A DNA stretch of 64,000 nt from Candidatus Pacearchaeota archaeon (GTDB taxonomy: Bacteria; Patescibacteriota; Minisyncoccia; Minisyncoccales; UBA5738). The stretch covers positions 22,777 to 86,776 of the forward strand of contig DAOSDI010000001.1 of the NCBI GenBank assembly GCA_035362275.1, read 5' to 3'. Below the pieces are notes generated by a model. The model had not been told where the DNA came from. It ran no database searches and worked only from the letters and a program-made list of their open reading frames with translations. The translations under genes were made by a program, and so were the position numbers. Below, piece by piece: positions 3,435 to 61,080 of this stretch; within the stretch, counting starts at the first letter, position 1, and the number at the start of each line of letters is the position of its first letter.

Positions 3435-3508
3435 TTAATCCTTGATTGTCAAAGATTAAAGATTAAACCCGCCTTTGTTGAGAGGGTCTTTTAATGTCGC
3501 ACAATATT

Positions 3509-6831: not shown

Positions 6832-6833
6832 TA

Positions 6834-29236: not shown

Positions 29237-30640
29237 CTAAATTTCAAAGCTTTGGGAAAATTCGGGAATGTTGACGGTAATATTGGGAAGGGATTGTCGG
29301 GTGATTTGCGCAAAGGCTTCGGCTTGCGGCGTTTCGGCATGGACCAAAAACAAGTTTTTCAATCCCTTAATGCCCGCGGCGTAATTTAACAGATCTTCCC
29401 GGTCGGCGTGGGCGCTTAACTCGTTGAGCGCCGTTATTTTGGCGCGCACGTCGTGCCATCGGTCAAAAATCTTCACGGGGGTTTGCTTCTCCAAAATTTT
29501 TCTTCCCAGCGTGTTTTCCGCCTGAAATCCGGTGATTAAAACGATGTTATCGGTGTTGCCGATGCCGTTTTTCAAATGGTGCAGGATCCGGCCGCCTTCG
29601 CACATTCCCGATCCGGCGACAACGACAAACGGTCCGGATTTGCCGTTGAGCGATTTTGATTCCGCGGCGGATTGGACATATTTCAAGTTATTGAAATTGA
29701 AAGCGGCGTTTCCGTCATCGCCGAATTCCCTCCTGAAATCATCGTCAAAAAGATGGGCGTAGCGGGGGAAAATTTTGGTGATTTTATCTCCCAAAGGGGT
29801 GTCAATGTATATCGGCAGTTTGGGAATGGCTTTTTGCTTGATGAGCAAATGCAGGATATAAATCAGTTCCTGGGTTCTTCCCAGGGAAAACGCGGGGACG
29901 ATGATTTTGCTTTTCTTGCGCGCCGCGGTTTTGACAATATCTTTCACCTTTCCTAATACTTGCGGCATTGGTTGATGCGTGCGGTTGCCGTAGGTGCATT
30001 CCATTATCAAAGTTGGCGCGGTTTCTTGAATGCTTTCGGGGGCGCGCAATATCGGCAGTTCATCGCGCCCCAGATCGCCGGAAAACACCAAATTTTTAAC
30101 GTTGTTATTTTCGTTGATTTCCAGCGATATCGCCGCCGATCCCAAAATATGGCCGGCGTCATGGAATTTGAAGCGGATATTTTCATTTATTTTTGTCCAC
30201 TCGCCGCCCGAGGAAAAATAATCCACGGTTTTGAAACATTCAATCACCCGTTGCACATCCTCTTGGGTGTAAATGGGGGCAATCGGCTCTCTGCCGACAG
30301 GATGGGAATTGTAATATTCGCAATCGTGCTTTTGAATGTTGGCCGAGTCCAGCAGGATCAACTCGGCGATTTCGGCGGTGGCGGGAGTGCAGTAGATTTT
30401 TCCGGCAAAGCCGTTTTTCACCAATGTTGGCAACGATCCGCAATGATCCAAATGCGCGTGCGACAAAATTACGGCATTGATGTTTTTTGCCTCAAACGGA
30501 AGATGGCGGTTTTGTTGGTTGGCGTCGGTCCTTTTTCCTTGATAAAAACCGCAGTCAAGCAAAAGACCGAATCCTTGGGTTTCTATCAGATGTTTTGATC
30601 CGGTGACGTTTTTTGCCGCGCCCCCAAAAGTGATTTTCAT
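29237..30640 (-). CDS. MBL-fold beta-CASP ribonuclease (RNase J/CPSF family)
   Basis: HAHLDHCGSLP metallo-beta-lactamase motif with beta-CASP downstream motifs. The probable start is MKITFGG at 30640, rather than the longer ORF-track start at 30688. Confidence 0.8.
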   Translation of the reverse strand: MKITFGGAAKNVTGSKHLIETQGFGLLLDCGFYQGKRTDANQQNRHLPFEAKNINAVILSHAHLDHCGSLPTLVKNGFAGKIYCTPATAEIAELILLDSANIQKHDCEYYNSHPVGREPIAPIYTQEDVQRVIECFKTVDYFSSGGEWTKINENIRFKFHDAGHILGSAAISLEINENNNVKNLVFSGDLGRDELPILRAPESIQETAPTLIMECTYGNRTHQPMPQVLGKVKDIVKTAARKKSKIIVPAFSLGRTQELIYILHLLIKQKAIPKLPIYIDTPLGDKITKIFPRYAHLFDDDFRREFGDDGNAAFNFNNLKYVQSAAESKSLNGKSGPFVVVAGSGMCEGGRILHHLKNGIGNTDNIVLITGFQAENTLGRKILEKQTPVKIFDRWHDVRAKITALNELSAHADREDLLNYAAGIKGLKNLFLVHAETPQAEAFAQITRQSLPNITVNIPEFSQSFEI

Positions 30641-31557
30641 TTGAAGTATTGGAATAAAGCGTTGATGCCGGCCAGATTTTTTTGCCATTCAATGCTTTGG
30701 TGCGTGGCCAGTTCCACGGTGATGGCGGAAATGTGGATTGATGCCAGCCAGTCGGTGGCATCTCCCGAAACTTGATATTGGTCAAAAGTGTCTTTGGCCG
30801 GATATCCGGACGCCTTGGCGTAGGCGTTGAGAATCGCGCGGGTTTCATCGGACATATCCGCGTTGCACATTGAGCCGTAGACCGCGTTGGATTGGCTGTG
30901 CCAAAAAACGACCGCCGCCGGCTTGTTTTTCAAAACATAATCGCGCAACGCCGCGCTTTCCGGTTCCGAAAATGCCGCACTGCCGGCGTTCACCTCTTTT
31001 TGCCGCCAGATGCCTTTGGGTTGCCAATTGCAATCAAAGTTGCGGTTCAGGTCCACATTGTTGGCGTTGAAGCGTCCCGTCTCGTTGGTGCCGGCGGGAA
31101 TGTCGGCGGCGGCAAACCGTCCCTCTTTGCCGGCAATCTTGGCCAACCCGTCGGGATTGAGCGCGGGAATCACCGCCACCGACAAATTTTTTGGAACAAT
31201 TTCGGGATTTGTCTCCAGATAATCAATAAATTCCCAAGCCAAAAGCGCGCTGTTCCATTCATAGCCGCCGTGGATGGCGCCCGCAAAGACCAGCAATTTG
31301 CCGCCGTTGCCGAAACGATAGATTTCAATCGGGCGGTTTTGTGCCGAATAGCCGATAATTTCATATTCGGGGGCGGAGGTATCTTTGAGCTCCTTTGGCG
31401 GCAACGGTTCTTCGCCTTCAATTTCTTTCTTTATGGCGGGTGTTACCGATTCTGTTTTGATTCGGGTATTTTCAAACAATACCCATAAAATCGCGGCCAG
31501 CAAAATCGCGCAAATTCCGGCGGCGGCAGTCAATTGGCGGTTGGAAAAAGGTTTCAT
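30637..31557 (-). CDS. M14-family zinc carboxypeptidase-like protein (membrane-anchored)
   Basis: GAIHGGYEWNS and NVDLNRNFDCNWQ motifs (M14 Zn ligands / substrate arginine region). N-terminal TM. Confidence 0.65.
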   Translation of the reverse strand: MKPFSNRQLTAAAGICAILLAAILWVLFENTRIKTESVTPAIKKEIEGEEPLPPKELKDTSAPEYEIIGYSAQNRPIEIYRFGNGGKLLVFAGAIHGGYEWNSALLAWEFIDYLETNPEIVPKNLSVAVIPALNPDGLAKIAGKEGRFAAADIPAGTNETGRFNANNVDLNRNFDCNWQPKGIWRQKEVNAGSAAFSEPESAALRDYVLKNKPAAVVFWHSQSNAVYGSMCNADMSDETRAILNAYAKASGYPAKDTFDQYQVSGDATDWLASIHISAITVELATHQSIEWQKNLAGINALFQYFK

Positions 31558-32549
31558 TTGCCGTAATGATCAAGAATCGCCTTAATACCCGCCCAATTTT
31601 TATCCCATTCCTCGTCTTCGGATGTATTCAAAATTACGCTGATTGCCGGAACATTATTTTTGGCAAACCAATCCGTCATATCGCCGGAAATTTGGTAGGA
31701 TTCAAAATTCTTATAAGCCGGATAACCCGAGGCTTTGGCATAAAGATCGGTGATCGTTTGCGTTTCCGGAAGAATGCCATTGTTACAGCTTGACGAATAT
31801 ACTCCGCCGCCGGAACTATACCAAGCAACTACCGCGGCGATTGAATGGCTTTGCGCGTAATCGCGGACAGCTCTGCTTTCCGGTTCCGAAAATGCCGCAC
31901 TGCCGGCACTCACGGGTTTGTTTTGCCAAACGGCTTTGGGTTGCCAATTGCAATCAAAGTTGCGGTTCAGGTCCACATTGTTGGCGTTGAAGCGTCCTTC
32001 GGTTCTTATGTTCAGTTTTTCAGAATCGTCCAAGCTGTTGAACCGGCTTGCGTTATTCATAAAAACATAAGATCCGTCCGGATTCAAATTTTGGATTATC
32101 GTCACTTTAATGTTGGCGGGAATCAAGCTTGAATCCGAGAATAAATTATTTGCCAACTTTTCGGCCAAAAGCACCGTGTTAAATGAATACCCCCCATGAA
32201 TGCCCCCAATGAAAAGAATTTCTTTGGAGCCGTTGCCGTAGTGATTGGCGATTATTTCGGTTCCGCCCGCCGATTTGCCGATTAGGGTTTCTGGAGAATT
32301 ATGCGCTTCGTTTTGCGGCACTTCTTGGTCTTGGTTTTCTGCGACAACATCTTCGGCCGGCAAATCGTTTTCAACGTCTGGCGGCGTTTGGGTTTGCGAT
32401 TCTTCGGCCGGCATCGGATTTTGAGTTTCTTCGGGCGTTGATGCGAAACGATAGGCCAAGAAAACGAGCGCGGCAACGCAAACAACGGCAATAACGATAG
32501 AAACGATATTTTTCATATTTTTGATTTGATTATTTTTTTTATCGCTCAC
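31554..32549 (-). CDS. M14-family zinc carboxypeptidase-like protein, tandem paralog
   Basis: Same GGIHGGYSFNT and NVDLNRNFDCNWQ motifs. Shares 32-nt and 64-nt stretches identical to the neighbouring paralog. Confidence 0.65.
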   Translation of the reverse strand: MSDKKNNQIKNMKNIVSIVIAVVCVAALVFLAYRFASTPEETQNPMPAEESQTQTPPDVENDLPAEDVVAENQDQEVPQNEAHNSPETLIGKSAGGTEIIANHYGNGSKEILFIGGIHGGYSFNTVLLAEKLANNLFSDSSLIPANIKVTIIQNLNPDGSYVFMNNASRFNSLDDSEKLNIRTEGRFNANNVDLNRNFDCNWQPKAVWQNKPVSAGSAAFSEPESRAVRDYAQSHSIAAVVAWYSSGGGVYSSSCNNGILPETQTITDLYAKASGYPAYKNFESYQISGDMTDWFAKNNVPAISVILNTSEDEEWDKNWAGIKAILDHYGK

Positions 32550-32913: not shown

Positions 32914-33043
32914 TTTGGCGTGATGCCCGACATTGCCGGCAAATATCAAACAAAAAACCCTGAGAGTAGCGGTATCAAATACCGCTACGATATCAGAAAA
33001 AAACAAAACGTCCCGACAGTTTCGGGACGTTTTATTTTTTGGA

Positions 33044-33241
33044 CTAGGCGCGCGCCACATTGACCGCCGCCGGTCCCTTTTCACCGTCAACAACTTCAAA
33101 TGTCACCGCATCGCCGACTTTGAGATCGGCATATTCCACGCCTCGCAATTCTTTGGAATGGAAAAACAAGTCTTTGGCTTCCCCTTCGCGGGAAATGAAT
33201 CCAAATCCTCTTTCCGTGAGAGTTTTGATTGTTCCGTTCAT
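33044..33241 (-). CDS. cold-shock protein (CspA family)
   Basis: MNGTIKTLTERGFGFISREGEAKDLFFH...: RNP1-like GFGFI motif. Confidence 0.85.
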   Translation of the reverse strand: MNGTIKTLTERGFGFISREGEAKDLFFHSKELRGVEYADLKVGDAVTFEVVDGEKGPAAVNVARA

Positions 33242-33477
33242 TTTTTTGTTGAATTTACGCACAACGGGAAACCGACCATTTTCCGTTTTCTAACTGTCTT
33301 AACACTATACACCATAACCCCTTTTTCTCCAAATTTCAGTCCCCGCCGGGCGTCGGAACACGCAACCCCAACGCCAAGATTTAATTCTTTGGCCGCCAAA
33401 ACCGCCAATTCGTGCAGTTTCTTGCAATTGGCGCACCCCGATCCGATAACCTCAATTGATGTGATCTTGTCCTCCAT
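33238..33477 (-). CDS. small thioredoxin-fold protein (redox-active disulfide protein 2 / Thioredoxin_3-like)
   Basis: EVIGSGCANCKK (CxxC) plus a GVM segment. Sits between arsR and the csp gene. The C-terminus diverges from typical family members. Confidence 0.45.
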   Translation of the reverse strand: MEDKITSIEVIGSGCANCKKLHELAVLAAKELNLGVGVACSDARRGLKFGEKGVMVYSVKTVRKRKMVGFPLCVNSTKK

Positions 33478-33495
33478 TTTTTTTGATTATTGGCA

Positions 33496-33527
33496 ATTAA
33501 CAATTAACAATTAACAATTAACAACAT
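33496..33527. repeat. microsatellite (caattaa) x ~4.5
   Basis: ggcaattaacaattaacaattaacaattaac read directly. Confidence 0.9.
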
Positions 33528-33566
33528 TCCGACATTCTTGAGAATGTTGGAATGTTTATTCACATG
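33527..33566. repeat. conserved hairpin element, copy 1 (acattccgacattcttgagaatgttggaatgtttatt)
   Basis: 12-bp stem cattccRacatt/aatgttggaatg, 6-nt loop, followed by tttatt. A second copy lies at 49226-49265 with 3 mismatches that preserve pairing. Confidence 0.7.
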
Positions 33567-33600
33567 CCAGAATGCCCCGGGGGCTTTGGCCCGGCGCGGT

Positions 33601-33903
33601 TTATTTGATTATTTTAAAAATATTTTCCGTTATCCTTTCTCCTTTTTCCGTCAGCGAATAATGAATCCAAGCTCCGTCTTTCCGTCCCTCGATCAATTCT
33701 GCTTTCTTCAATTTGTTCAAGTGGTGCGACACCAGATTTTGCGGCAAGCCAAGATGCTTGATGATCCGGCAGGCGCAATGTTCGCCGCCTTGCAAAATGC
33801 AAAGTATTTTAAGCCGGTTTTCTTGGGCCAATAACTTCAAAACCGCCGCGGCCGGCGCGAATTCTTCCTTGCGGCGGTTATTTTTGCAACATTCCGGTTT
33901 CAT
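33601..33903 (-). CDS. ArsR/SmtB-family transcriptional regulator
   Basis: Winged-HTH signature LAQENRLKILCIL...CACRI...LPQNLVSHHLNKLKKAELI. Confidence 0.8.
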   Translation of the reverse strand: MKPECCKNNRRKEEFAPAAAVLKLLAQENRLKILCILQGGEHCACRIIKHLGLPQNLVSHHLNKLKKAELIEGRKDGAWIHYSLTEKGERITENIFKIIK

Positions 33904-33953
33904 ATATCAATCTACATTGATATTTTATCCCGTTTAAAATGTTTGTCAAATTA

Positions 33954-33985
33954 AAAAAACGAAGCCCGCCGGCTTCCCGAAAAAT
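33954..33985 (-). terminator. rho-independent terminator for the minus-strand operon 37070->34210
   Basis: Minus strand reads cgggaagccggcgggcttcg followed by ttttttt. Confidence 0.65.
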
Positions 33986-34209
33986 AATAAAAATTGCCAC
34001 CTTCCCCCATTTCGCGCGGCAAACAACCCCCAACTCCCTCCCGCCTTTAACGAACCGCCAAATTTTCTTCGATTTTAGCACAACCATTCCTCGCGGAACC
34101 TTCAAAAACCAGAATTGACACCATTTTTATTTATTATCTCCAATTGTCAAAAAATAAAAACCGCATTTTAATGCGGAATTGAATCTAAAAAAGGGAAAGG
34201 ATATAACGC

Positions 34210-34407
34210 TCATAAATTATTTTGTATTCGATTTGGGATGCTATGCTTCGCGTTATATCCCGTTATGAGTGTTTTTAATTCTTCTTCGCCGATATCTCTT
34301 TCGAGTTCGGCAACCACAAGAAGAGCGGTTTGCAGGTCTCCAATAAAGACCGCTGATCTCATTAACGTTTCGTATAATGACCGCTTTGCTGGCGTAATAG
34401 TCCTCAT
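34210..34407 (-). CDS. hypothetical small protein (last gene of the candidate operon)
   Basis: 65-aa ORF, no motif. Confidence 0.25.
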   Translation of the reverse strand: MRTITPAKRSLYETLMRSAVFIGDLQTALLVVAELERDIGEEELKTLITGYNAKHSIPNRIQNNL

Positions 34408-34447
34408 ATAACCACCATAGTTCTATTAAGCCATAAACGATATTTTG

Positions 34448-34729
34448 TCAACAAAGAGAATAGATACAACCAAAAACCGCCAAAGACGATTTAAGTGCAT
34501 TTAACTTTTCGATTGAATTAATACGAATCGTGCAATCGTCAACTTCCACGCCTACGGAATAGCTGCCCTTTTGAGCCCATACATCTATCCGCGATTTTCG
34601 TCCGGGCCAAACTTGTTTTTCTGTCCGCGAATCATAGCCGAATCGTAAAAAGTAATCTTTAATAAGCCATTGTATCTGCGAATGGTGCGGCGTATGGATT
34701 TTTAACAGATCGGAAACTAAATAATTCAC
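34448..34729 (-). CDS. hypothetical protein
   Basis: 93-aa ORF, no motif. Could be a fragment of a larger gene. Confidence 0.25.
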   Translation of the reverse strand: MNYLVSDLLKIHTPHHSQIQWLIKDYFLRFGYDSRTEKQVWPGRKSRIDVWAQKGSYSVGVEVDDCTIRINSIEKLNALKSSLAVFGCIYSLC

Positions 34730-34749
34730 ATCACAAAAAATCTAGGAAT

Positions 34750-35502
34750 TTATTTTTTCTCCGTTCTCCTCTTAAATTCTTTCTTAATATCAGAATTATT
34801 GATAGGTTTCCTGAAGAAAAAACACTTAGCTTTGTTTTCTGCTGGAACAACGTAGTCAATTAAGCTTTTACCATCAGGCGTTCCGCAATGCACTTGATGC
34901 ACAAATTCTTTGCCGTATTTTTCTGAGTTGTTAAATTCGCAATAATATAAAATTTCATCTGTTTTTAATTGGAACCTGTGCGAATCCCCATGGCCAAAAA
35001 AATAAACCTCTTTTATGCTTTTATCTGCCATAATTTTTTCGATATCTTTGAAGCTTGCATTTGTATAGAAAGAAAAATCCTGTTTTCTGGATTTTATACA
35101 ACGAACTAATGCCTCTAATTCATCTTTCAAAAAATTAGTTCTAAGCCATCCTTCAAGCTTAAACCAATCTGTTTGCCCTAAGATTACAACAGTATGGGCG
35201 GGTATATTTTGCTTGAATTTTTTTAAATATTGTGTCGATAGGTAGTTATTTATCGGATATATAATTACCAATATTGGCGAAAAAAAGAACTGGATAAAGT
35301 CATAGCCAAAGTAAACTAATCCATAAATAATCACGAAAAAGAGATGAACAAAAATAACCGAAACGATTGCTTTCGTACTAAAGCCCTTAAGCAGTGGAGA
35401 TATTAAAGCGATAATATATGCAAAAAATAAAAAAATCCTAGAATCTGTCCTTAATAATATCTGTGCTAATATTCCTTTTGGTTTACCGTTAATCATTTGC
35501 AT
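34750..35502 (-). CDS. membrane-anchored protein with a C-terminal putative minimal caspase-like (His...Cys) domain
   Basis: Three N-terminal TM helices. C-terminal approx. 150 aa has VVILGQTDW (beta1-like), ...EVYFFGHGDSH (His-dyad-like) and VHCGTPDG (candidate Cys). This is a speculative assignment. Confidence 0.35.
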   Translation of the reverse strand: MQMINGKPKGILAQILLRTDSRIFLFFAYIIALISPLLKGFSTKAIVSVIFVHLFFVIIYGLVYFGYDFIQFFFSPILVIIYPINNYLSTQYLKKFKQNIPAHTVVILGQTDWFKLEGWLRTNFLKDELEALVRCIKSRKQDFSFYTNASFKDIEKIMADKSIKEVYFFGHGDSHRFQLKTDEILYYCEFNNSEKYGKEFVHQVHCGTPDGKSLIDYVVPAENKAKCFFFRKPINNSDIKKEFKRRTEKK

Positions 35503-35507
35503 AATAT

Positions 35508-36398
35508 TTAAACTTCATAGAATTTAACATTCTTTTCTTTCAGGAAATTTTTTATTATATCAACGTGAACGCAATTTCCTAGATGTAGAAACGGATGGTT
35601 AGATACTTTTTTAATTCTACCACCATCTCTAATTTCTTTTTCTTTTATGTCGAATCCTAGATGAAGATGGTGAGTCGATGATTGCATACCGTAAACAATT
35701 CCATTCTGATCAAATAATGGGCCACCGCTTTGACCCCTTAGTCCGGGAGTACTCATTTCAATGCCGTTTGGGGCTCCGGTTGTGCCCATGACTTTTCTTG
35801 TTATCATTCCTTCAATTGGAAAACGAGGAGTAATTTTTTGGCCTTGCTCTATCCATTCAATATCGTCTTTTTCTGCGTTGTATTCAAAATTAGAAAATTC
35901 TGGAAACGGAAAACCTAAGCGGCATAGAAACTTACCCTGCCTAATCAAAGAAGCATCCTTAAGAAAAGTTGCATAACCATTGTATAGAAGTTTTTGAAAT
36001 CCATTGAATTCGATAATCGCAATATCTTCGGTAGGGTGCATAATCATCTTAAAACCGCTTATGTTGTCAACACAATTCATAAAATGATTCTTAATTTGTA
36101 TGGTAGTTATAGGCTCGTATTTATATTTTTGCTCCAATTCTCTTAATTTTCTTCTGTATTTGCCTGCTTTTCCAGTTAAAGCATCTCTTTCTTTTTTAAA
36201 GCTTTGGAAATTATTATTTATTTGGTCGGATTGTGCAATCAAAATTGCAACATGCTTGCATGTAATTGCTTGGCCAAGTTCATTAACAAAAAAGAAGGTT
36301 GCCGCGCCAGGTATAACAATGTCGCTTCCATATTCCCGAGTAATAGTGTGTATCCCTCGGGTATAACCTGCTACTTTTTCAATTGCATCTGAGAACAT
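35508..36398 (-). CDS. cytoplasmic trypsin-like serine protease (Trypsin_2/S1-like)
   Basis: Catalytic triad context ITCKHVA (His), DIAIIEF (Asp), GQSGGPLF (Ser). No signal peptide. Confidence 0.65.
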   Translation of the reverse strand: MFSDAIEKVAGYTRGIHTITREYGSDIVIPGAATFFFVNELGQAITCKHVAILIAQSDQINNNFQSFKKERDALTGKAGKYRRKLRELEQKYKYEPITTIQIKNHFMNCVDNISGFKMIMHPTEDIAIIEFNGFQKLLYNGYATFLKDASLIRQGKFLCRLGFPFPEFSNFEYNAEKDDIEWIEQGQKITPRFPIEGMITRKVMGTTGAPNGIEMSTPGLRGQSGGPLFDQNGIVYGMQSSTHHLHLGFDIKEKEIRDGGRIKKVSNHPFLHLGNCVHVDIIKNFLKEKNVKFYEV

Positions 36399-36434
36399 TA
36401 TTTTGTAATTTATTTAATTTATTTGCCTTGTTTT

Positions 36435-37070
36435 TTATTTCATCGGCGGCTTTCCTAAATCAGTTAATTTTTCGTTCAACTTCTCCTTTTTCTTCTTTAA
36501 AATTTCCGGTTGCACAAAATAAAAATCAAATAAACCCTCCAGTATATCAAGATTCCATTCTGCTTCTCCGGGCTCCACTTCTGCTATTTCGCCAGTAGAT
36601 TTGCTTTTTGTCGGGTGTGCAGCAAAATTTCCTATATTTCTTACTGCGTCAATGCCTTCCGATAATTGTGTTGGTAATTTATTTGAGTTAATTATTTCTT
36701 CAATTTCCTTACTTAAATTATCGGGTTTAACTTTTGCTTTTTCACGCAATAAATTCTGCAGACAATGCCTACTTAATGCTGCACTTGCCTTTGGACTATC
36801 CATTAATATAAGGCAAGCTTCCGTATAATCTTGAGCAAATTCCGACGATACTTCTGTCGGCAATGGAGATCTTGATATAGATCTGGGCCTGACTAATTGC
36901 GAATATCCACGGTTATTCGTTAACCGAATAATATTTTTTTCGCAAGAAGGACACTTACAATAGCTCAAACTCCATTTTCCTTCGCAATCGTTAATTGTTA
37001 TATATCTCTCGGAAGTAACTAAATCTTCCCATTCATCGAAAAAACCTTCTAAACAATGAGGGCATTTCAT
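36435..37070 (-). CDS. zinc-ribbon + DUF4145/HEPN-like domain protein
   Basis: N-terminal CPHC...CKCPSC zinc ribbon. C-terminal AVRNIGNFAAHP matches the R-x-x-GN-x-AAH signature of DUF4145 (HEPN superfamily, Abi-like). Confidence 0.55.
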   Translation of the reverse strand: MKCPHCLEGFFDEWEDLVTSERYITINDCEGKWSLSYCKCPSCEKNIIRLTNNRGYSQLVRPRSISRSPLPTEVSSEFAQDYTEACLILMDSPKASAALSRHCLQNLLREKAKVKPDNLSKEIEEIINSNKLPTQLSEGIDAVRNIGNFAAHPTKSKSTGEIAEVEPGEAEWNLDILEGLFDFYFVQPEILKKKKEKLNEKLTDLGKPPMK

Positions 37071-37199
37071 ATTTTTTATTAAGTATAACTATTAATCTGA
37101 ACTTATTATACTATCAATTAGTATAGAACAAGAGTTAGAACAAGTCAAACTGTTCTTGACTAGCTTTTTATAAAGGGATTATAATAAACGTATAAAGAT

Positions 37200-37814
37200 A
37201 TGCAAAAAAAACTTCATCCCCTACAACAACAAATTCTTGATTTGTTGGTCGAAAATTCTGACGATCCCTTGACTATAAGAGAGATACAGGATGCCGTTGG
37301 TGCCTCATCAACAAGCGTCATCGCTCATCACTTAGCCCAGCTAGAAAAGAAGGGATATTTAAAGCGTAATCCATTTAATCCGAGAGATTATCAAGTCCTG
37401 AAAGGGGGGCCGGAAAAACAAGTTACTTACATTAATTTATACGGCCTAGCTCAATGCGGCCCTGACGGTGCGATTCTTGATGGAAATCCAATAGACAGGA
37501 TACCAATATCAACAAGGCTTCTTCCCTTCCCTTCGGAGGAAGCATTTATGGTAAAAGCCAAGGGAGACTCAATGGAACCTAAAATTAGCGAAGGTGATTT
37601 AGTGATTGTAAGAAAAACAAACGATGCGGATAATAACAGTATTGTTATTTGCGCGAATAAGGGTGAGGCTTTGATTAAAAAAATTAAGAAAGAAAAAGAC
37701 GATATTATCTTGATTTCAATTAATAGCGAGAAACACCAGCCATTCCTCGCTGATAGAGAAAGCTTTAAAATTGAGGGGGAGGTTAAAACGGTTATCACAA
37801 ACAAACTTCCTTAA
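37200..37814 (+). CDS. LexA-like repressor (HTH + S24 peptidase)
   Basis: Winged-HTH N-terminus and a C-terminal AKGDSMEPKISEGDLVIVRK (Ser...Lys dyad). The stop is 1 nt before the methyltransferase start. Confidence 0.75.
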   Translation: MQKKLHPLQQQILDLLVENSDDPLTIREIQDAVGASSTSVIAHHLAQLEKKGYLKRNPFNPRDYQVLKGGPEKQVTYINLYGLAQCGPDGAILDGNPIDRIPISTRLLPFPSEEAFMVKAKGDSMEPKISEGDLVIVRKTNDADNNSIVICANKGEALIKKIKKEKDDIILISINSEKHQPFLADRESFKIEGEVKTVITNKLP

Positions 37815-37815
37815 A

Positions 37816-39621
37816 ATGGAAACATTGAAAGCGTACAACATAATAGAATCAGTTAATAAATATCCAGAAGAAGCAAAAACAAAATTGCTCGACTTTTTCA
37901 TTAAAGAAAAACCGAGCAATTGGAATACGGTTTTTAATATAAATGATTTATTGAATAAATTAAATTACGATCAGGTAGTCGAACTCATAGGAATATTTCA
38001 TCAAAAATCAAAAGAACAAAAAAAAGTTGAACAAACCAACGAAAGAAAACATTTTGGAATTTACTATACAGATTACCAATTAGCTCGCTTTATCGTAAGG
38101 GAAACTATAAACCTTAGCCAGATTGATCCTGCTAGGGCTACCTTCTTAGAACCATGCTGCGGAAGCGGTAATTTCATTATTGCTTATTTAGATGAAGTAT
38201 TATCAAAACAAAAAAATATTAACAACGCCTTAGTACAAAAAATAATAGATAATATTTATTGTGCCGACATTGACGAAGAAGCAATCAGTATAACGAAAAA
38301 AATAATTCCGCAATATCTTAAAAAGAAGTACGCAGTTTCCATAAGCGTATCAGAAAAAAATTATTTCTCGGGAGATTTACTTTTCACAATTAAAAATGGG
38401 AATATTTCAAAAAATGATCCGAAAAAGATATTTAGGTTGCCCGATGGATTCGATATTGTCATAACCAATCCCCCTTATAAGCTTCTCAAAGCGAATTCAA
38501 ATAAATATGGCAATGGAGAGAATAAGGAGTTTATTGAAAATGTTGTTGATTATATTCGAAAAGAAAATATTTATTCTCTAAATGAAGGAACTTTAAATTA
38601 CTATAAACTCTTCGTCGAAGAAATCATTCTTAACTATACTAATAAAAACAGCCTCATCGGATTACTAATTCCCCGGACTATATTGAACGATAAACAGTCT
38701 GAAAAATTAAGAAATTATATTATCGCCAACAGTAGACTATCAACCATATACAACATACCGGAAAAAAACGACTTTTTCCCTGATGTTGCACAGTCTTTTT
38801 GTTTTTTCTCCATTGATAAGTCTAAAAAAGGTGAGGAAATATCAATAGTGGATGAAGTTAGTAACGCTGATGATTTAAATAAAAAACCTATTTCAATCAG
38901 TATTTCTCAAGCAAAGGAAATATCATCTTCGATAATTGTGGAATCTAATATTGGCGTTAAAATACTAAAGAAAATTCACGCAAATCCAAAACTCGCTTCC
39001 ATAACGCATATTGCTAATTTACGCGGAGAGCTAGATTTAACTTTGCATAAAAAATTTATCGCCGAATCGCCAACAAAATATCGTCTTATAAAAGGCGCAA
39101 ATATAAGGGAATTTTCGATTGAAGAACCTAATAATTATGTTAGCGATGATTTCCTAGGATTAATAAATGGAAAACATCATTACGTAATCAATTCAAGGAT
39201 TGTTTGTCAGCAAATTTCAAATATTAACTCTTCAAAACGCTTAAAGTTTGCATTTGTACAGCCTAATTATGTTTTAGGTAATTCCTGCAATTTCATAGCC
39301 TTGCAAATGTCCAATAGCCTTTTTAAAACAAAAGATGTTTCCCTCTACTATCTTTTGGGGATATTGAATTCTTTTTTAATGGATTGGCGTTTTAGGTTAT
39401 CGAATTCAAACAATCACGTTTCTAATTACGAACTTAATGATTTGCCGATTGTTGTAAATGGCAATAAAGGGATAATCGACAAAATCGAACGTATTTCTAA
39501 AGACCTAATAAAAAAACCTGATGATAGTTTAATGCGAGAAATGAACGATTTAACTTTGAAATTATACGGTTTAGATGATCAGGAAACTGCTTATATAAAC
39601 TCTCGCTACGTAAAAATATAA
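37816..39621 (+). CDS. N6-adenine DNA methyltransferase, gamma class (Eco57I/TaqI-like)
   Basis: Motif I EPCCGSGNFII precedes motif IV DIVITNPPYK. 600+ aa with a large target-recognition region. Confidence 0.8.
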   Translation: METLKAYNIIESVNKYPEEAKTKLLDFFIKEKPSNWNTVFNINDLLNKLNYDQVVELIGIFHQKSKEQKKVEQTNERKHFGIYYTDYQLARFIVRETINLSQIDPARATFLEPCCGSGNFIIAYLDEVLSKQKNINNALVQKIIDNIYCADIDEEAISITKKIIPQYLKKKYAVSISVSEKNYFSGDLLFTIKNGNISKNDPKKIFRLPDGFDIVITNPPYKLLKANSNKYGNGENKEFIENVVDYIRKENIYSLNEGTLNYYKLFVEEIILNYTNKNSLIGLLIPRTILNDKQSEKLRNYIIANSRLSTIYNIPEKNDFFPDVAQSFCFFSIDKSKKGEEISIVDEVSNADDLNKKPISISISQAKEISSSIIVESNIGVKILKKIHANPKLASITHIANLRGELDLTLHKKFIAESPTKYRLIKGANIREFSIEEPNNYVSDDFLGLINGKHHYVINSRIVCQQISNINSSKRLKFAFVQPNYVLGNSCNFIALQMSNSLFKTKDVSLYYLLGILNSFLMDWRFRLSNSNNHVSNYELNDLPIVVNGNKGIIDKIERISKDLIKKPDDSLMREMNDLTLKLYGLDDQETAYINSRYVKI

Positions 39622-39638
39622 ATTTTATTGAGATAGAC

Positions 39639-40760
39639 ATGGTATACAATCACATAACTTATTCTCTGAGTGAGCTGGATCTAAAAATGGTTCGTAGCGT
39701 GCCGCCTGGAGGAAATTGGAAAAATATACCCGAGGATATACCCTCCGAAAGGTTAAAACAAATTCGCAAAACTGGCGGGCGCACTACCCTGTACGGGAGA
39801 ATGGTATGGGAAAAACCGAGCTATACAATAACGACATATTTTAACAGGCCCGGAAATGGCACATATATCCACCCGGATTTTGACAGAGTTATCACTGCCA
39901 GAGAAGCGGCAAGGCTTCAATCTTTTCCCGATGACTTTATTTTTAAGGGGTCGAAAGGATCTTTTTGTGTTCAAATCGGAAATGCCGTTCCTCCGCTTTT
40001 ATCTTTTTCTTTCGCCGAAAAAATCAAAAAAGAAACCGGAGCAAAGAGATTGGTAGATTTATTTTGCGGTGCAGGTGGATTAAGCAAGGGTTTCGAATGG
40101 GCGGGTTTTGATATTATTGCTGCAAATGACAATTATCATGAAGCTTGCGAAACTTATAAAATCAATCATACACAAACTAAACTTGTCGAAGGCGACATAA
40201 CCGATAAGAAAATTAAAAATGCTTTATATGAGGCTATTGGCGATATTAAAGCTGATATTATCGTTGGGGGGCCGCCATGCCAAGGATTTTCGTATGCAGG
40301 AAAAAGATTTATAGATGATCCGCGCAATTTCTTATTTCGGGAATTTGTTGACGTAGTCAAGAAGGTAAAACCGTCTATTTTTCTTCTGGAAAATGTCGAA
40401 GGAATTATAACTAGCAATGAGGGAAAAACTTTCGAAAGCATCAAGGAGAGTTTTAAGGCATTGGGCTATAAATTAGCAGGAAAAAAAATTCACGCCGTTA
40501 CATACGGGGTTCCACAAAAGAGAAAACGTATTGTTTTGATCGGGGTCAAAAAAGGAAATCCTGAAAGTTTATTCCCTGATCCGGTGATAGAAGATGAAAA
40601 AAAATTTGTTTCAGTTAGAGATGCTATCGGCAACCTGCGAAGCCTACCGATTGGAGATATGATGGCAGATGAAAATCCTAATCCTGAAACAGACTATCAA
40701 AGGATGATGGCCGGATTGATGCACCCTAGAAAATTCATAAAAAATATTCGCGAGAATTAA
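39639..40760 (+). CDS. C5-cytosine DNA methyltransferase, circularly permuted (motifs IX-X before I-IV-VI-VIII)
   Basis: The N-terminal segment ...AREAARLQSFPDDFIFKGS...QIGNAVPPLL (motifs IX/X) precedes DLFCGAGGLS (I), GGPPCQGFS (IV), ENV (VI) and QKRKRIVLIG (VIII). Confidence 0.8.
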   Translation: MVYNHITYSLSELDLKMVRSVPPGGNWKNIPEDIPSERLKQIRKTGGRTTLYGRMVWEKPSYTITTYFNRPGNGTYIHPDFDRVITAREAARLQSFPDDFIFKGSKGSFCVQIGNAVPPLLSFSFAEKIKKETGAKRLVDLFCGAGGLSKGFEWAGFDIIAANDNYHEACETYKINHTQTKLVEGDITDKKIKNALYEAIGDIKADIIVGGPPCQGFSYAGKRFIDDPRNFLFREFVDVVKKVKPSIFLLENVEGIITSNEGKTFESIKESFKALGYKLAGKKIHAVTYGVPQKRKRIVLIGVKKGNPESLFPDPVIEDEKKFVSVRDAIGNLRSLPIGDMMADENPNPETDYQRMMAGLMHPRKFIKNIREN

Positions 40761-42145
40761 GATTGATCAAATTGCGTTTCCGCATCGTTCGCCAGCGAAA
40801 CAAATGCTTCCAAGATTTTTGAATCCGCCCTTTTAATATTTTTGGTTTCCAATACCAAAAGAATTTCACTAATAATTTTATCAATCGTTGGATTGTTCCA
40901 CTTTTTTTGGTTCCTATTTGCCTTATTTTTGTAATCAGCTAATGATTCAAACGCAACGCGGATACATCTGGTTGCATTTTTCTTTTTATTTGCGCTTGAT
41001 AACTCCTTGGGAATAATTTTCCCAGGGCCGGCTTTGGGATCAAATTCTTCAAATTTATAATCCCAAAATGAGTATTCAGGATGCAAAAAACACTTAAGAT
41101 AGTCATCAAAACCAGCCTCGCTAATCATTGAGAAGATGATCAGAATGTGATGAAGATTAGTTCTCATCAATTTGCTGAGCAGGAGAGCATCATCCTCTGT
41201 TTGAACTTTATTCTTTAATCTATCCCAAATTGATTTAGAGTGCCAAGAAATAACAATTTCGCCTGATTTCTCATCAGCTATGAGCTGCTTAACGTCGGAA
41301 AGCGTAATTCTGTTATTCTTTTTACTATTACAGTTTTTGCAAAGTGGATTAAACTTGGGACGATGTGTAAATCCTAGCGATATTGGGCCTATGTGATCTG
41401 CCGTCATTTTTCTTTCCTTGCCGCAATCTGGACATTTCATTAACGGAGCATACCCCTGATATTCGCCCATTAGGCGATTAGACAGATTCCAATTCCCATC
41501 AGCCCAATTCTCATACGCTCTACGATCTTGCGTGTACCGAGAAAGATTAGCTTTTAGCCGCCCTGTGTCTTCCTTGCTTCTGCAGCAACCATTGTAAGTA
41601 TGGAAACCATCAAGCCGATCTGGCGGATTGCTCATTACTCCCGGGCTAAGCCTAGATTGCCGGTTATTTTCAATAAAAGAAAGGATATCTTTATCATCAA
41701 CGTTAGCTGGTATATTAAATATTTTCCTTATTTTTGCATAACTATCCTTTGAGGTTTTATTAAGACGGCCAATTGTCTGACCTATGGTTTCTTGGTATGG
41801 TTTTAGCTTTAATTTTGAAAAAGCAGAATTAATCTTTTTAAGCGTATTTTTATTTGGATAAACATAGAAAATGCTTAATTTTTTTCCACAAATTTGGCAC
41901 GGTTTAAAACCGTGAAGTTCTTTCGGGTGTATGGCACGCGCAACGTCCGCTCGGTCATTAACGCCTAGTTCTTTTATCTTGCTATCCCACCATTTTGCAC
42001 GTTGCTTATCTGACGGAGAAACCCATTTAATCTTTCCGTTGCCGTTAAACTTATTCGGCATTGAGGCATAGTTTGGATGAGAAACTATTATCTTCATGTA
42101 GCCGGCAAATTTCCGATCCCAAGTCCGTTTAATTCTTTTAGCCAT
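40757..42145 (-). CDS. putative type IIS-like restriction endonuclease with an HNH-type active site
   Basis: Convergent with the two methyltransferases. CPDCGKERKMTADHIGPISLGF...NPLCKNCNSKKNN resembles the HNH motif (C-x2-C...DH...N...C-x2-C). Confidence 0.5.
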   Translation of the reverse strand: MAKRIKRTWDRKFAGYMKIIVSHPNYASMPNKFNGNGKIKWVSPSDKQRAKWWDSKIKELGVNDRADVARAIHPKELHGFKPCQICGKKLSIFYVYPNKNTLKKINSAFSKLKLKPYQETIGQTIGRLNKTSKDSYAKIRKIFNIPANVDDKDILSFIENNRQSRLSPGVMSNPPDRLDGFHTYNGCCRSKEDTGRLKANLSRYTQDRRAYENWADGNWNLSNRLMGEYQGYAPLMKCPDCGKERKMTADHIGPISLGFTHRPKFNPLCKNCNSKKNNRITLSDVKQLIADEKSGEIVISWHSKSIWDRLKNKVQTEDDALLLSKLMRTNLHHILIIFSMISEAGFDDYLKCFLHPEYSFWDYKFEEFDPKAGPGKIIPKELSSANKKKNATRCIRVAFESLADYKNKANRNQKKWNNPTIDKIISEILLVLETKNIKRADSKILEAFVSLANDAETQFDQS

Positions 42146-42148
42146 ATC

Positions 42149-42379
42149 TTATTCGATAAAAAAACTTAGATCCTTTTTATAAACCTTTGCAAAATCTTTG
42201 AGCTGAATTATATCAATCTTTCTTTGACCAGCTTCAATTTTCGAAACGTAAGATTGAGATTTCCCAATCAATTTTGCAACTTCGGCTTGGTCTAGATCGG
42301 CCTGAGCACGAGCTTGTTTCAACCTCCCTATTATTAATAAGTGATCTTTTGAATAAATAGTTTTCCCCATATTTAGCAT
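42149..42379 (-). CDS. XRE-family HTH controller (C-) protein upstream of the endonuclease gene
   Basis: LKQARAQADLDQAEVAKLIGKSQSYVSKIEAG HTH_3 motif. 76 aa. Sits immediately upstream of, and co-oriented with, the REase. Confidence 0.65.
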   Translation of the reverse strand: MLNMGKTIYSKDHLLIIGRLKQARAQADLDQAEVAKLIGKSQSYVSKIEAGQRKIDIIQLKDFAKVYKKDLSFFIE

Positions 42380-42394
42380 TTGTTATATATATGA

Positions 42395-42430
42395 TATATT
42401 CCATATTGTAATATTCCAAAATGGAATATA
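42395..42430. promoter_or_regulatory. putative C-box-like operator upstream of the controller gene
   Basis: Palindrome atattccaaaatggaatat plus an additional atattcca half-site, within about 50 bp upstream of the C gene. Confidence 0.4.
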
Positions 42431-42469
42431 GATATGCTTTTATACTTTATTTGACTATCATTACATTTA

Positions 42470-42503
42470 TAAAAAAGCGAAGCCTGCTGGCTTCGATTTA
42501 TAT
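42470..42503 (-). terminator. intrinsic-terminator-like hairpin (same motif as 33954-33985)
   Basis: Minus strand reads atcgaagccagcaggcttcg followed by ctttttt. Confidence 0.5.
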
Positions 42504-42936
42504 ATTTTAAATGCAAAATTATCCCCTTTTACCCCCCCACCTTGCGGCCAAAATGCGTTGGCCTGAGCCCAATTCGAGCCCGGCTGCCCCTTTGCGGGCG
42601 GAGTTTTTTGGCGCGCAAAAATGTTATGTTTAAATATAACATAAATATAACATTTTTATTTTCTTGAATAACCACATTCAACCTTGAAGCGCAGTCTTTG
42701 TCCGCAACACTTACTTTTTGAGATCAGGTAAACGAGCGAACAATTGACTAAAAGCAAATAATCCGATATAATAGCAATATGTTAATTATGATAATGTCAA
42801 ATTCGCGAGAGCCCATTGCGCAAACTGCTTGCGGGCCTTTTGTATTGTCATAATTTTTTTCATTTGGAATAAAATAATTTTGGCAATACGCCCCGCAAGC
42901 GGGGTTTTTGTTTTGCGTAAAATTAATTATTCTACT

Positions 42937-43352
42937 ATGAAATCCAAAAACAACTCGATTTTTCATCTAACGAGGCATCGTTCAGATGTCTCAATTGCCA
43001 TGAAATCATCTCAAACCAAGCATGGGGCACCAGCCATCGCAACCACTGCCCATTATGTCTTTGGTGCAAACATGTAGACTTGAAAACTCCGGGAGACCGG
43101 CGTTCCGAGTGCCAGGCAAGAATGAAACCGATTGGTTTAACAACAAAGACTAAGGGAGAATTAGCTATCGTTCACGAGTGTTTGAAATGCGGCAGATTAT
43201 CTTCAAATCGCATCGCCGGAGACGACGATCCGTATTCAATACTCTCCTTGCTTGATTTGCCGGTCCAAAACCGAAGAATTCCGATGCTGGCTCTGGAAGA
43301 CCGGGAGCAAGTATTAACAGCTTTGTTCGGTTATAATCATCCGGATATATAA
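42937..43352 (+). pseudogene. RNHCP-domain protein, reading frame broken at an A5 tract (42946-42950)
   Basis: Frame 0 encodes ...RCLNCHEIISNQAWGTSHRNHCPLCLWCKHVDLKTPGDRRSECQARMKPIG...DDD (RNHCP motif) but has no start. The only ATG (42937) is in frame 1 and reads MKSK. A6 instead of A5 gives the continuous protein MKSKKQLDFSSNEASFRCLNCHE... Confidence 0.55.
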
Positions 43353-43439
43353 CCAAGAAAAACCCACGAAAGTGGGTTTTTCTTTTGTTTTTTTTAAATC
43401 CAATTACCGCCGAGAATCGGTCGCCTGATTTAGCATAGG

Positions 43440-43640
43440 CATGCTGGCCGTCTGGGACGAAGTTGGTCGCGTAAAACTCGCTATGCTTGCCACGCGACTC
43501 GCGTAAAATATTACTTGAATTATATGAAATAAGTACTTCAAATGCCCGGCTGTTAAGCCGCGTGATGAGGAGTATGGCGACGAATTTTACGCGGCTACGG
43601 GCATTATGTAGCGTTAGAACCGCTATTCAACTAGACAATA
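43440..43640. repeat. GC-rich repeat element, copy 1 (segment A ggccgtctgggacgaagttgg ... segment B gttaagccgcgtgatgaggagtatggcgacgaattttacgcggct)
   Basis: The 45-nt segment B is identical, and the 21-nt segment A near-identical, to 48481-48545, where the two are adjacent in the opposite order (B then A). Confidence 0.75.
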
Positions 43641-43875
43641 ACACAAATAAATTTTATAAAATAAAGGCGGTTTGATATTATCTCACCGCAACGAATTGAT
43701 ATATTGGCTTTAAAGTCGTGTTGGTAGCTTGTCCCACCAATTGCATCCGGCTTGTGGCACAGAAGTATAACCCCAGTAGGTATCATTACCTTCAGCTGGA
43801 ACGGCAGGAATAAGCCAGCCGATTTGGTCACCTTCACCTTTTTTCATCATTTTTCCTGACACCATTTTTCTTACA

Positions 43876-45852
43876 TTATGACTGTTTCACCAATTCCATG
43901 TGGATTTTTTTTGCTTCCGGATCGGTTAATCCAACATACGAAATCCTAATAGTATATTTGATTTTATCTCCAGTACCAAAAGAATCTTTTATCTGTATGC
44001 TCCAAATTTTATCATTGCCGATCCTGTTCTTTATCGATTGAATATACTCATCCGGATTATCGTTAATTCCCAGTTCCACATTAATATCCAAAGGTACAAG
44101 TTTATTAGATAGCTCAACCACCGGATTCACCCCCCCGCCTTTTATCCCCAAAAGTTCATCAACATTTATTTCTGCGAAATAAGCATTCTTCGACGCAATA
44201 ACTTCCGGTTTTAATTTATAAATGACCCCGCATTTCTTCCCATTAACTTCAATCATCCAACAATTATGTCGGTTACTCACTTCCGGAATAATTTCCGGCT
44301 GCCTGTAAATTATATCCGTACGGCCCAACATCCGCACCACCCTCTCAACACTTGATTTAAATGAATCTAAAACCTTCCCATCACCGCAAACAAATAATCC
44401 TAAGCTTTCAAATTCGTGGAATCCTCCGTTGCTTTTACCAAAAACCTTCCCAATCTCAAATAAATTAATAATTTCGATATTCTTTTTTAAATACTCGCGC
44501 GCTTGCCGTAAAAGCCCGTTCAATAATGTCTGCCTCAATTCCGGATGATTCTCGTTTATGGCGTTCTCTGTTTCAATTGCTTCCCATGGTAAATAATTTG
44601 CTTTTTTGCTTTCGCCTCTTTCTGTTAACGGCAATGATAATATCTCGTCAAAACCGCAAGAACTCAAAATTTCCTGGATTTTTTGCGAAGCCAAAATACG
44701 TTTTGGCGTAATATCCGGGACAACTTCAAACAACGGCGGTTTATTAACGGGAATTTTATTGTATCCGTAAATCCTGATTACTTCTTCGTACAAATCCTGC
44801 GGATATGACAAATCGGTCCTATATGAAGGACAAACTACCGAATGAATATTATTTTCGCCGGTTTCTTCAACTTCAAATTCAAGCCTCTTCAATATATCCA
44901 ATCCAACCACAGGTGCAATTTCTATGCCTGCGTAAATTGTTGGCATCGTCACGTCAAACTTAATTGACTTGTTTACCTTTTTTATTGGATAATATTCGAA
45001 AATTTGCGAAACTAATTCGCCGCCACAAATATCTTTCAGCATACCTATCATCAAATCCATTGCGAATTCGGCTCCTTCCGTATCAAGATCTTTCTCCAAA
45101 CGATTACTTGCTTCGGTTGTAAGCTTTGTACTTCGCGAATCGCGCCTTATAGCCGCACCATTATAAACGGCCATCTCCGCTACAATATCGGTTGTATTTA
45201 AATCAATGGCCGCCGCCTGCCCTCCAATAATACCTGCCAGCGCTAAAATTTTCTCATCATCCCTGATTACCAATTCATTCTTCTGCAGTAGCTCAATTGC
45301 TGAACCATCCAAAGTGGTAATTTTTTCATTTTTCCGAGCATTTGACCATCTCAAAGTTCCATTCAATTTTTTGTTATCCAGCAAATGCGAAGGATAACCT
45401 GTAAAAATCATTATGTAATTTGAAATATCAACAAGCGCATTCTTGCTATTTATATCGTAAACTTCCAGAAATTCCTGAAGCCATTGCGGCGATTGCTGGT
45501 TTCTAACTCCTGACATCCGCAAGGCAATAATTCTTTTAATCCCGTTATTTTTTGCCTCAATTTTGATCGGTAAAACCGGCAATCCCTGCCTACCTTCAAC
45601 TTTTCTCCCGGATAAAATCATCTTTAACCCATAATAAGCAGCTACTTCCCGCGCAATTCCCAAAACTGAAAAACAATCCGCCCGATTTTGCCGTATTTCA
45701 AAACTTAAAAGATAATCTCTTTTGCCCTGATATTCTATTTCTTTAAAATCATCCATCATAAAACCGCAAAATGTCATCGCTTCGCCGATTTCTTTTGGTT
45801 TTGCTTTTAATCCCGGAATCAATTGTAATAATTGGCTATAAATTACTTTCAT
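43876..45852 (-). CDS. pheT: phenylalanyl-tRNA synthetase beta subunit
   Basis: B3/B4-like region ...SFEIRQNRADCFSVLGIAREVAAYYGL. Immediately downstream of, and overlapping, pheS. 658 aa. Confidence 0.75.
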   Translation of the reverse strand: MKVIYSQLLQLIPGLKAKPKEIGEAMTFCGFMMDDFKEIEYQGKRDYLLSFEIRQNRADCFSVLGIAREVAAYYGLKMILSGRKVEGRQGLPVLPIKIEAKNNGIKRIIALRMSGVRNQQSPQWLQEFLEVYDINSKNALVDISNYIMIFTGYPSHLLDNKKLNGTLRWSNARKNEKITTLDGSAIELLQKNELVIRDDEKILALAGIIGGQAAAIDLNTTDIVAEMAVYNGAAIRRDSRSTKLTTEASNRLEKDLDTEGAEFAMDLMIGMLKDICGGELVSQIFEYYPIKKVNKSIKFDVTMPTIYAGIEIAPVVGLDILKRLEFEVEETGENNIHSVVCPSYRTDLSYPQDLYEEVIRIYGYNKIPVNKPPLFEVVPDITPKRILASQKIQEILSSCGFDEILSLPLTERGESKKANYLPWEAIETENAINENHPELRQTLLNGLLRQAREYLKKNIEIINLFEIGKVFGKSNGGFHEFESLGLFVCGDGKVLDSFKSSVERVVRMLGRTDIIYRQPEIIPEVSNRHNCWMIEVNGKKCGVIYKLKPEVIASKNAYFAEINVDELLGIKGGGVNPVVELSNKLVPLDINVELGINDNPDEYIQSIKNRIGNDKIWSIQIKDSFGTGDKIKYTIRISYVGLTDPEAKKIHMELVKQS

Positions 45853-59467: not shown

Positions 59468-61080
<1,613 letters not shown>

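Follow-up and report, generated by a model that had tools for sequence, protein, structure and literature searches.

Five co-directional open reading frames (ORFs), here called A to E, occupy the minus strand at 34210-37070 of a 64,000-nucleotide stretch of contig DAOSDI010000001.1 (hereafter the window), and had been proposed from the sequence alone to form one novel defence operon. We read the cluster as a mosaic of separately mobile genes, not as one multi-gene machine, with a probability of about 0.75. With the same confidence, we take it to be the cargo end of an 8.1-kb mobile-element fragment in a bacterial chromosome of the Candidate Phyla Radiation (CPR) type. The locus is a mobile-element-derived mosaic defence island, and its one new item is the family of gene C, a predicted membrane-anchored protein with a caspase-like fold. 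Gene A is, judged by its sequence, a homologue of the known single-gene system PD-T7-4, now called RAZR, and not a novel component. Gene B encodes a cytoplasmic serine protease with no relation to it.

Linkage of the gene families

The case for a mosaic comes from the neighbourhoods of each gene's relatives. Homologues of gene B were sampled as the best 80 genome matches, all from Bacteroidota (55-62% identity), with flanks of 7 kb. At none of these 80 loci does A, C, D or E lie within 7 kb; the neighbours are ordinary housekeeping genes (an aminotransferase, Frr, pentose-phosphate genes) that vary by lineage. Closer homologues of gene B (65-73% identity) have A or C at 0/7 loci; some of the seven lie near Fic, SocA, RadC or a methylase, some near a serine recombinase and some near housekeeping genes. 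In total, 0/87 gene B loci carry RAZR or gene C once the near-identical set is left out. Seen from the gene C family, gene B is present at one of 57 metagenome loci (contig L105, with B 94% and C 87% identical to the window) and RAZR at none. Among 14 loci with RAZR homologues of 40-70% identity, B and C are both missing and the downstream genes all differ. The order A-B-C was found only in contigs L105, L138 and L160, each with at least 87% amino-acid identity, and co-occurrence of A, B and C across divergent genomes was not found. The original prediction had made its single operon-level system depend on conserved co-occurrence in other genomes; with no linkage outside near-identical contigs, it therefore fails on its own terms.

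The window shares a low-GC block with contig L138. One BLASTN alignment of 8159 nt joins 34468-42603 of the window to L138 at 88.4% nucleotide identity, and the GC fraction of the block is 0.351 vs 0.455 for the rest of the window. Both copies hold the genes for the controller, the endonuclease, two methylases, the LexA-like protein, RAZR, B, C and D. In L138 the block is flanked by a large serine recombinase on one side and by Replic_Relax and a TrwB/TraG-type coupling protein on the other; mobility genes of this type are absent from the window. At one edge of the block stands a GC-rich repeat about 80 nt long. It has three copies in L138 (3646-3719, 15980-16056 and 16313-16351), of which two are inverted relative to the first, and these bracket a 12.4-kb segment including the relaxase-like and coupling-protein genes. 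The repeat has no Rfam match and may be an element end, an origin of transfer (oriT) or a recombination site. No convincing attachment-site (att)-type direct repeats flank the island, and no tRNA gene is nearby.

The state of the individual genes varies within and around the block. At 9846-11507 of L138, gene B is split into pieces of 52 + 244 aa and gene C into pieces of 148 + 98 aa, with the frameshifts in T-runs, while RAZR, LexA and the R-M (restriction-modification) genes of that contig are intact. If real, the frameshifts would point to B and C being dispensable. ORF D, which has no Pfam match, is probably a truncated remnant, because it has a GTG start and its C-terminus departs from a 171-aa L138 counterpart exactly at the end of the shared block (34468), 20 nt before the ORF D stop codon. 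ORF E lies outside the horizontally shared block, and no homologue of it was found in any fetched locus; it is probably host-side or spurious. Under the mosaic reading, B and C would share a transcript with RAZR only through recent juxtaposition, each family normally living without the other two, and they would presumably have independent roles.

Several points weigh against this reading. The layout is as tidy as first described, with gaps of 36, 5, 20 and 40 nt (A-B, B-C, C-D and D-E), a single orientation and terminator-like hairpins only 3' of ORF E, none being obvious between the five ORFs. A single shared terminator had been placed at 33954-33985; a hairpin does exist there, but a nearer one directly follows ORF E (Table 1). 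Given the tight packing, the one orientation and the lack of an obvious internal terminator, the five ORFs are probably co-transcribed, and even recent co-transcription can couple gene functions. Three further related contigs keep the order A-B-C. Our neighbourhood samples are biased, since the gene B sample is all Bacteroidota and the metagenome contigs are often short. The L138 frameshifts, both in T-runs, may be sequencing errors and are therefore weak evidence of dispensability. Moreover, protease-plus-effector designs are common in defence, and lineage-specific cooperation of A, B and C remains compatible with the comparative data.

The same layout would suit an integrated abortive-infection system built from A, B and C, perhaps together with D and E, in which the protease activates or restrains the HEPN RNase of gene A or the products act as co-effectors of one trigger. 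The conservation of the arrangement in L105, L138 and L160 speaks for it, as does a weak match of gene B to the protease domain of PADLOC RT-Protease models. We consider it quite improbable: the co-occurrence is confined to near-identical relatives (0/87 B, 1/57 C and 0/14 RAZR loci), L138 keeps RAZR whole with B and C each split, ORF D is truncated and ORF E stands outside the block. In E. coli, moreover, RAZR works as a single gene (PMC13017515).

Table 1. Positions of the genes and sequence elements in and around the cluster (window coordinates)
Feature	Position	Strand	Remarks
RAZR / PD-T7-4 homologue (gene A)	36435..37070	-	211 aa; Cys4 zinc ribbon + DUF4145 HEPN
S1 chymotrypsin-fold serine protease (gene B)	35508..36398	-	296 aa; cytoplasmic; HtrA/Deg-like
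Putative membrane-anchored minimal CHAT/caspase-like protein (gene C)	34750..35502	-	250 aa; 3 hydrophobic helices + ~150-aa domain
ORF D	34448..34729	-	93 aa; GTG start; probable remnant
ORF E	34210..34407	-	65 aa; gene status unproven
Terminator-like hairpin	34161..34176	-	CCGCATTAAAATGCGG then T-run; 34 nt 3' of ORF E
Second terminator-like hairpin	33961..33976	-	~200 nt beyond first one
Low-GC horizontally shared block	34468..42603	.	8.1 kb; all genes of this table except ORF E and last 20 nt of ORF D
GC-rich ~80-nt repeat at block edge	42524..42603	.	three L138 copies, two inverted relative to first
LexA/CI-type S24 autocleaving repressor	37200..37814	+	LexA_DNA_bind + Peptidase_S24
Divergent promoter region, RAZR gene / LexA-like gene	37071..37199	.	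129 nt; back-to-back -35/-10-like boxes
N6-adenine methyltransferase (Eco57I/TaqI_C type)	37816..39621	+	profile match
C5-cytosine methyltransferase	39639..40760	+	profile match
Alw26I/Eco31I/Esp3I-family type IIS endonuclease	40757..42145	-	RE_Alw26IDE 4.8e-125
HTH_3 controller protein	42149..42379	-	5' of endonuclease gene; HTH_3 4.1e-15

The RAZR homologue, its probable repressor and the restriction-modification system

Gene A had been described as a zinc ribbon fused to a DUF4145/HEPN domain, and the CxxC pairs (C3-x2-C6 and C40-x2-C43), the RNIGNFAAH motif (R144...H152) and the Pfam match all bear this out. DUF4145 is matched at 5.9e-15 (55.5 bits vs a cut-off of 23.1), PHROG 1305 at 1.9e-27, the PADLOC PD-T7-4 model at 3e-21 (residues 2-155) and PDB entry 9y9c at 1.2e-8. 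In the last of these, RNIGNFAAH aligns to RIVGNQAVH, and R144/H152 with R146/H154 of RAZR. An alignment of 21 relatives shows no variation at C6, C40, C43, R144 or H152, and the conservation of C3 is 90% or more. With the PADLOC and PDB matches and the published work on PD-T7-4 (PMC13017515), the idea of a novel, unnamed multi-gene system loses its first member, since gene A alone already has a name.

PD-T7-4 of E. coli, which combines a zinc finger with a DUF4145/HEPN domain, was renamed RAZR (ring-activated zinc-finger RNase); it is a single-gene abortive-infection system in which R146 and H154 are required (PMC13017515). It encircles ring-shaped proteins of the phage (Gp77, portal proteins) as a 24-mer ring and cuts single-stranded RNA, whereupon translation stops and the infection aborts (PMC13017515). 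Gene A has every RAZR/PD-T7-4 feature that can be checked at the sequence level: the zinc ribbon with its four cysteines stands at the N-terminus, the HEPN domain (DUF4145), with its catalytic R-x7-H, forms the C-terminal part, and no partner is conserved (the 14 homologue loci have unrelated neighbours, and the PADLOC model consists of one gene). The two proteins share their two-domain architecture, a length of about 211-219 aa, the aligned catalytic Arg/His and the habit of a stand-alone gene on mobile DNA or in defence islands. They also differ. Pairwise similarity is limited to the linker and HEPN domain (residues 69-155, E 1.2e-8), and the zinc ribbon of gene A, the part that would read the phage trigger, is divergent. 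Moreover, the host of gene A is an ultra-small CPR-type bacterium, and two protease genes come after it on what is probably a single transcript, divergent from a LexA-type repressor.

By analogy with E. coli RAZR, gene A would be a defence effector whose zinc-ribbon domains bind phage proteins that form rings of the portal or recombinase type. Around such a ring it would build a curved oligomer and thereby position its HEPN R-x7-H sites to cut single-stranded RNA. The cleavage would then halt translation and abort the infection, with no partner protein needed.

RAZR-like genes also occur in the repressor/integrase (lysogeny) region of temperate Streptococcus phages, which fits a pattern of RAZR as a cargo gene of mobile elements and prophages. 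In another genome (contig L155), a few kb separate pheT from a RAZR homologue of 65% identity, which is accompanied by an integrase fragment and an HSDR_N_2 protein; the stretches compared are L155 4943-10584, L156 4004-9645 and, in the window, 43876-45852. The vicinity of pheST may be a recurrent insertion hot spot in these bacteria.

Gene A is adjoined by a complete Alw26I-family type IIS R-M system with its own controller. The presence of an R-M system beside the cluster had been predicted, and profile matches confirm it as type IIS: like the Alw26I/Eco31I/Esp3I systems, it has an RE_Alw26IDE endonuclease together with N6-adenine (m6A) and C5-cytosine (m5C) methyltransferases. The endonuclease and controller genes are convergent with the methylase genes. 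Both methylases match one fused PADLOC model (MTase_II PDLC03237); this best model is a 1036-residue fusion, whereas the window has two separate genes. A further difference from known Alw26I-family systems lies in the LexA-type repressor gene to which the methylases are coupled, in addition to the usual helix-turn-helix (HTH) controller.

The repressor matches Pfam Peptidase_S24 (5.1e-24) and LexA_DNA_bind (1.6e-12), barely passes TIGR00498 (112.1 vs a cut-off of 110.95) and also matches the phage repressor family phrog_4. It has the GDSM serine and the cleavage-site region LAQC-GPDG, where Cys-Gly stands in place of the Ala-Gly of LexA, as at the UmuD-type cleavage site. The stop codon of the repressor gene and the ATG of the N6-adenine methylase gene (37816) are 1 nt apart, so the methylase genes are apparently co-transcribed with a self-cleaving repressor, beside a separate HTH controller.

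Between the repressor gene and the RAZR gene lie back-to-back promoter-like sites, TTGACT-17-TATACT on the minus strand and TTGACT-18-TATAAT on the plus strand. Two palindromes overlap them: one, AGAACA-N8-TGTTCT (37137-37156), lies over the -35 boxes, and the other, TATACTA-N5-TAGTATA (37107-37125), over the -10 box of the minus strand. Both are candidate repressor operators. The classical Gram-positive LexA box, GAAC-N4-GTTC, was rejected as a description because the palindrome spacer is N8. The spacer at 37071-37199 is kept in L138 and L160, but the three sequences are 95% identical and too alike for a conservation test. The LexA/CI-type repressor between the modules would repress back-to-back promoters shared with the RAZR transcript, and its self-cleavage on DNA damage would de-repress both transcripts.

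The serine protease and the putative cysteine protease

Gene B had been called trypsin-like, with an intact His/Asp/Ser triad and no signal peptide, and it is so on every count. It carries GQSGGP, and H49, D125 and S224 are invariant in 99 homologues; neither a signal peptide nor a membrane anchor was found, and the N-terminus (MFSDAIEKVAGYTRG) is not hydrophobic. Its AlphaFold model is confident (predicted local distance difference test score 92.8) and has the double beta-barrel fold of S1 proteases with the His/Asp/Ser triad. In structure comparison the fold is closest to HtrA/Deg/MarP-type proteases. Sequence scores are lower: Pfam Trypsin_2 gives 25.4 bits, just under the cut-off of 27.6, and the NCBIfam MarP score is 13.6 vs 250 bits.

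Assignment to the HtrA/Deg (S1C) quality-control proteases was rejected, as the protein has no PDZ domain and is not exported. Pfam finds no PDZ domain in gene B, and the model ends with the protease barrel and one helix; HtrA/DegS/DegQ and MarP-type S1C proteases differ in their PDZ domain, signal peptide or membrane anchor. Gene B differs from them further in a helical-hairpin insertion of about 45 residues (48-91) directly after the catalytic His49. By sequence it belongs to a separate and uncharacterised family of proteins of about 295 aa, which is strongly conserved. With 3,742 matches and at least 573 confirmed species-genome stretches, this family is a large one; it is a conserved chromosomal gene in Bacteroidota, with occasional use as mobile-element cargo elsewhere. 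In one lineage (L141/L142), a gene B homologue of 70% identity lies 2.5 kb from a serpin gene and adjoins a serine recombinase (2243-3487 and 6001-6894); the occurrence of the two together on a mobile element might point to how the protease is regulated.

Gene C had been guessed to consist of three transmembrane helices and a domain of about 150 aa with a minimal caspase/CHAT-like His-Cys fold, and the structural model and the invariance of H171 and C206 uphold the guess. Three hydrophobic helices (about residues 22-88) precede the soluble domain. Lys and Arg are abundant on either side of the bundle (K+R counts of 3.7 and 4.1), as would suit a protein with two true membrane spans and both termini in the cytoplasm. 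In the model, strand 165-169 leads into G-H171-G, and the next parallel strand, 200-204, leads into H-C206-G. The domain has four main strands and a hairpin, apparently without a p10-like half. It shows the caspase-haemoglobinase fold of clan CD, with the His-Gly and the Cys at the C-terminal ends of adjacent hydrophobic strands (as read from the model). When 34 members, some as little as 16% identical, are aligned, only G170, H171, G172, H205 and C206 do not vary. On the model, gene C is caspase/CHAT-like, with H171 (GHG) and C206 (HC) as a putative catalytic dyad.

Sequence libraries did not recognise gene C. It has no match to Pfam CHAT or Peptidase_C14; 29/114 family members give sub-threshold Pfam CHAT matches (best E 0.0018). 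A family-profile search of PDB sequences found nothing, and no PADLOC model matches. A search of the BFVD viral library returned weak matches only, the best (E 4.5e-4) to uncharacterised phage proteins, with weak caspase/metacaspase matches included. The family is rare, with 235 clusters among 1.84 billion representatives, and the names on its members are mostly Patescibacteria.

We compared gene C with a clan CD set consisting of SAVED-CHAT (8tl0), TPR-CHAT/Csx29 (7zoq, 7y9x), DdvA (8rot), caspases and metacaspases. Like CHAT and caspase proteases, it combines a caspase-haemoglobinase fold with His-Gly after one strand and Cys after the next parallel strand. It resembles DdvA, a transmembrane anti-sigma factor, in being membrane-anchored, and the CHAT proteases of type III CRISPR systems and of cyclic-oligonucleotide-based antiphage signalling systems (CBASS) in its placement in a defence-rich island. 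Gene C is far smaller than these proteins and lacks a sensor domain of the SAVED, TPR or anti-sigma kind; none of them has its bundle of three hydrophobic helices at the N-terminus, and its family is limited to a few hundred sequence clusters. As modelled, it is a new minimal membrane-anchored variant of clan CD, a previously undescribed family with no Pfam model.

The neighbours of gene C relatives at the 57 loci give some idea of its habitat. ParB-type N6_N4 methylases occur at 13 loci, type I R-M genes are represented by HsdR (8 loci), HsdM (5) and YgjP-like genes (6), and LexA-like repressors occur within 2 kb at 7 and HTH_Tnp-like proteins at 8. The repeated placement among R-M genes and the invariant His/Cys make gene C a reasonable candidate for a stand-alone effector, a role that we propose tentatively and at odds well below even. 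Most likely it acts on its own, as a member of a small family in variable, R-M-rich islands of ultra-small prokaryotes. Speculatively, the family would be a membrane-anchored, 'p20-only' class of immune or mobile-element effector of about 250 aa that senses infection or membrane perturbation and uses proteolysis to kill or arrest the cell, carried in such islands of CPR bacteria and other ultra-small prokaryotes; a further speculation, for this lineage, is its recruitment with gene B to work with RAZR.

Two other readings of B and C have to be weighed. They might form a two-protease module of their own, one processing or activating the other, that is independent of RAZR and downstream of it by chance. 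Proteolytic cascades occur in type III CRISPR-associated CHAT systems (8tl0 entry description), B and C are only 5 nt apart, which suggests translational coupling, and the catalytic residues of both are intact and invariant. Yet 56/57 C-family loci lack B, 87/87 B loci outside the near-identical set lack C, and B is a stand-alone conserved chromosomal gene with more than 570 Bacteroidota species records, which makes such a module very improbable.

Alternatively, only RAZR and the R-M system would be defensive, B being a passenger quality-control or regulatory protease, C a peptidase that processes membrane proteins or a decaying passenger, and D and E remnants. That one of the proteins might fall into a housekeeping family had been anticipated as a point against the operon, and for gene B it partly holds: structurally it is nearest to HtrA/Deg/MarP, and its Bacteroidota relatives sit in ordinary chromosomal, housekeeping settings. 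The anticipated failure of the caspase-like fold of C did not come about, as the model supports that fold. The truncation of ORF D and the frameshifts of B and C in L138 also suit a passenger role, as do the searches in which no phage record matched B or C and no PADLOC model matched C. Against it, C-family genes recur among R-M genes and repressors in variable islands, a pattern typical of defence or mobile-element accessory genes. Moreover, the catalytic motifs of B and C are intact in the window and those of the C family are invariant down to 16% identity, which implies selection for activity. We regard the passenger reading as unlikely and retain the mosaic of separately mobile genes, with gene C as its new member.

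Setting of the island and wider meaning

The cluster does lie in a defence island, as first thought, and we judge that context to be real. The surroundings had also been called housekeeping-poor; this does not hold, as pheT starts only 1.7 kb from the restriction endonuclease gene. Between the island and pheT lies a small ORF with an RNHCP domain (43080-43352; Pfam 9.6e-16, C-terminal 53 profile positions only), which may be a fragment. Just outside the island, at 30637-32549, two tandem paralogues share the motif RFNANNVDLNRNFDCNWQPK and both have N-terminal hydrophobic anchors; by eye, the motif resembles those of zinc carboxypeptidases (M14). An Rfam scan of 33000-44000 gave sub-threshold chance matches only.

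The window holds a bacterial 16S rRNA gene (59473-61081; 1379 bits against the bacterial small-subunit model), and the organism is therefore a bacterium despite its archaeal label at NCBI. DnaX and LexA in the window are likewise of bacterial type. The public record probably has this contig mis-binned or misclassified. Identical proteins (34750-37814) are filed at NCBI as HOI96934-HOI96937 under 'Candidatus Pacearchaeota archaeon', and some Pacearchaeota-labelled homologues of the C family may share the same misclassification.

For genome scans, the locus is a caution that a tidy, tight 'operon' beside an R-M system may be a recent mosaic of independent genes. The mechanism of RAZR was solved only in 2026, and the homologue described here extends the system to ultra-small episymbiont bacteria whose phage defences are poorly known. 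In this host it is carried on a mobile element, travels with a type IIS R-M system and is under apparent control of a LexA/CI-type repressor. The gene C family, if active, would be among the smallest caspase-fold proteases and would help to show what a caspase-type immune protease minimally requires and how such proteases arose.

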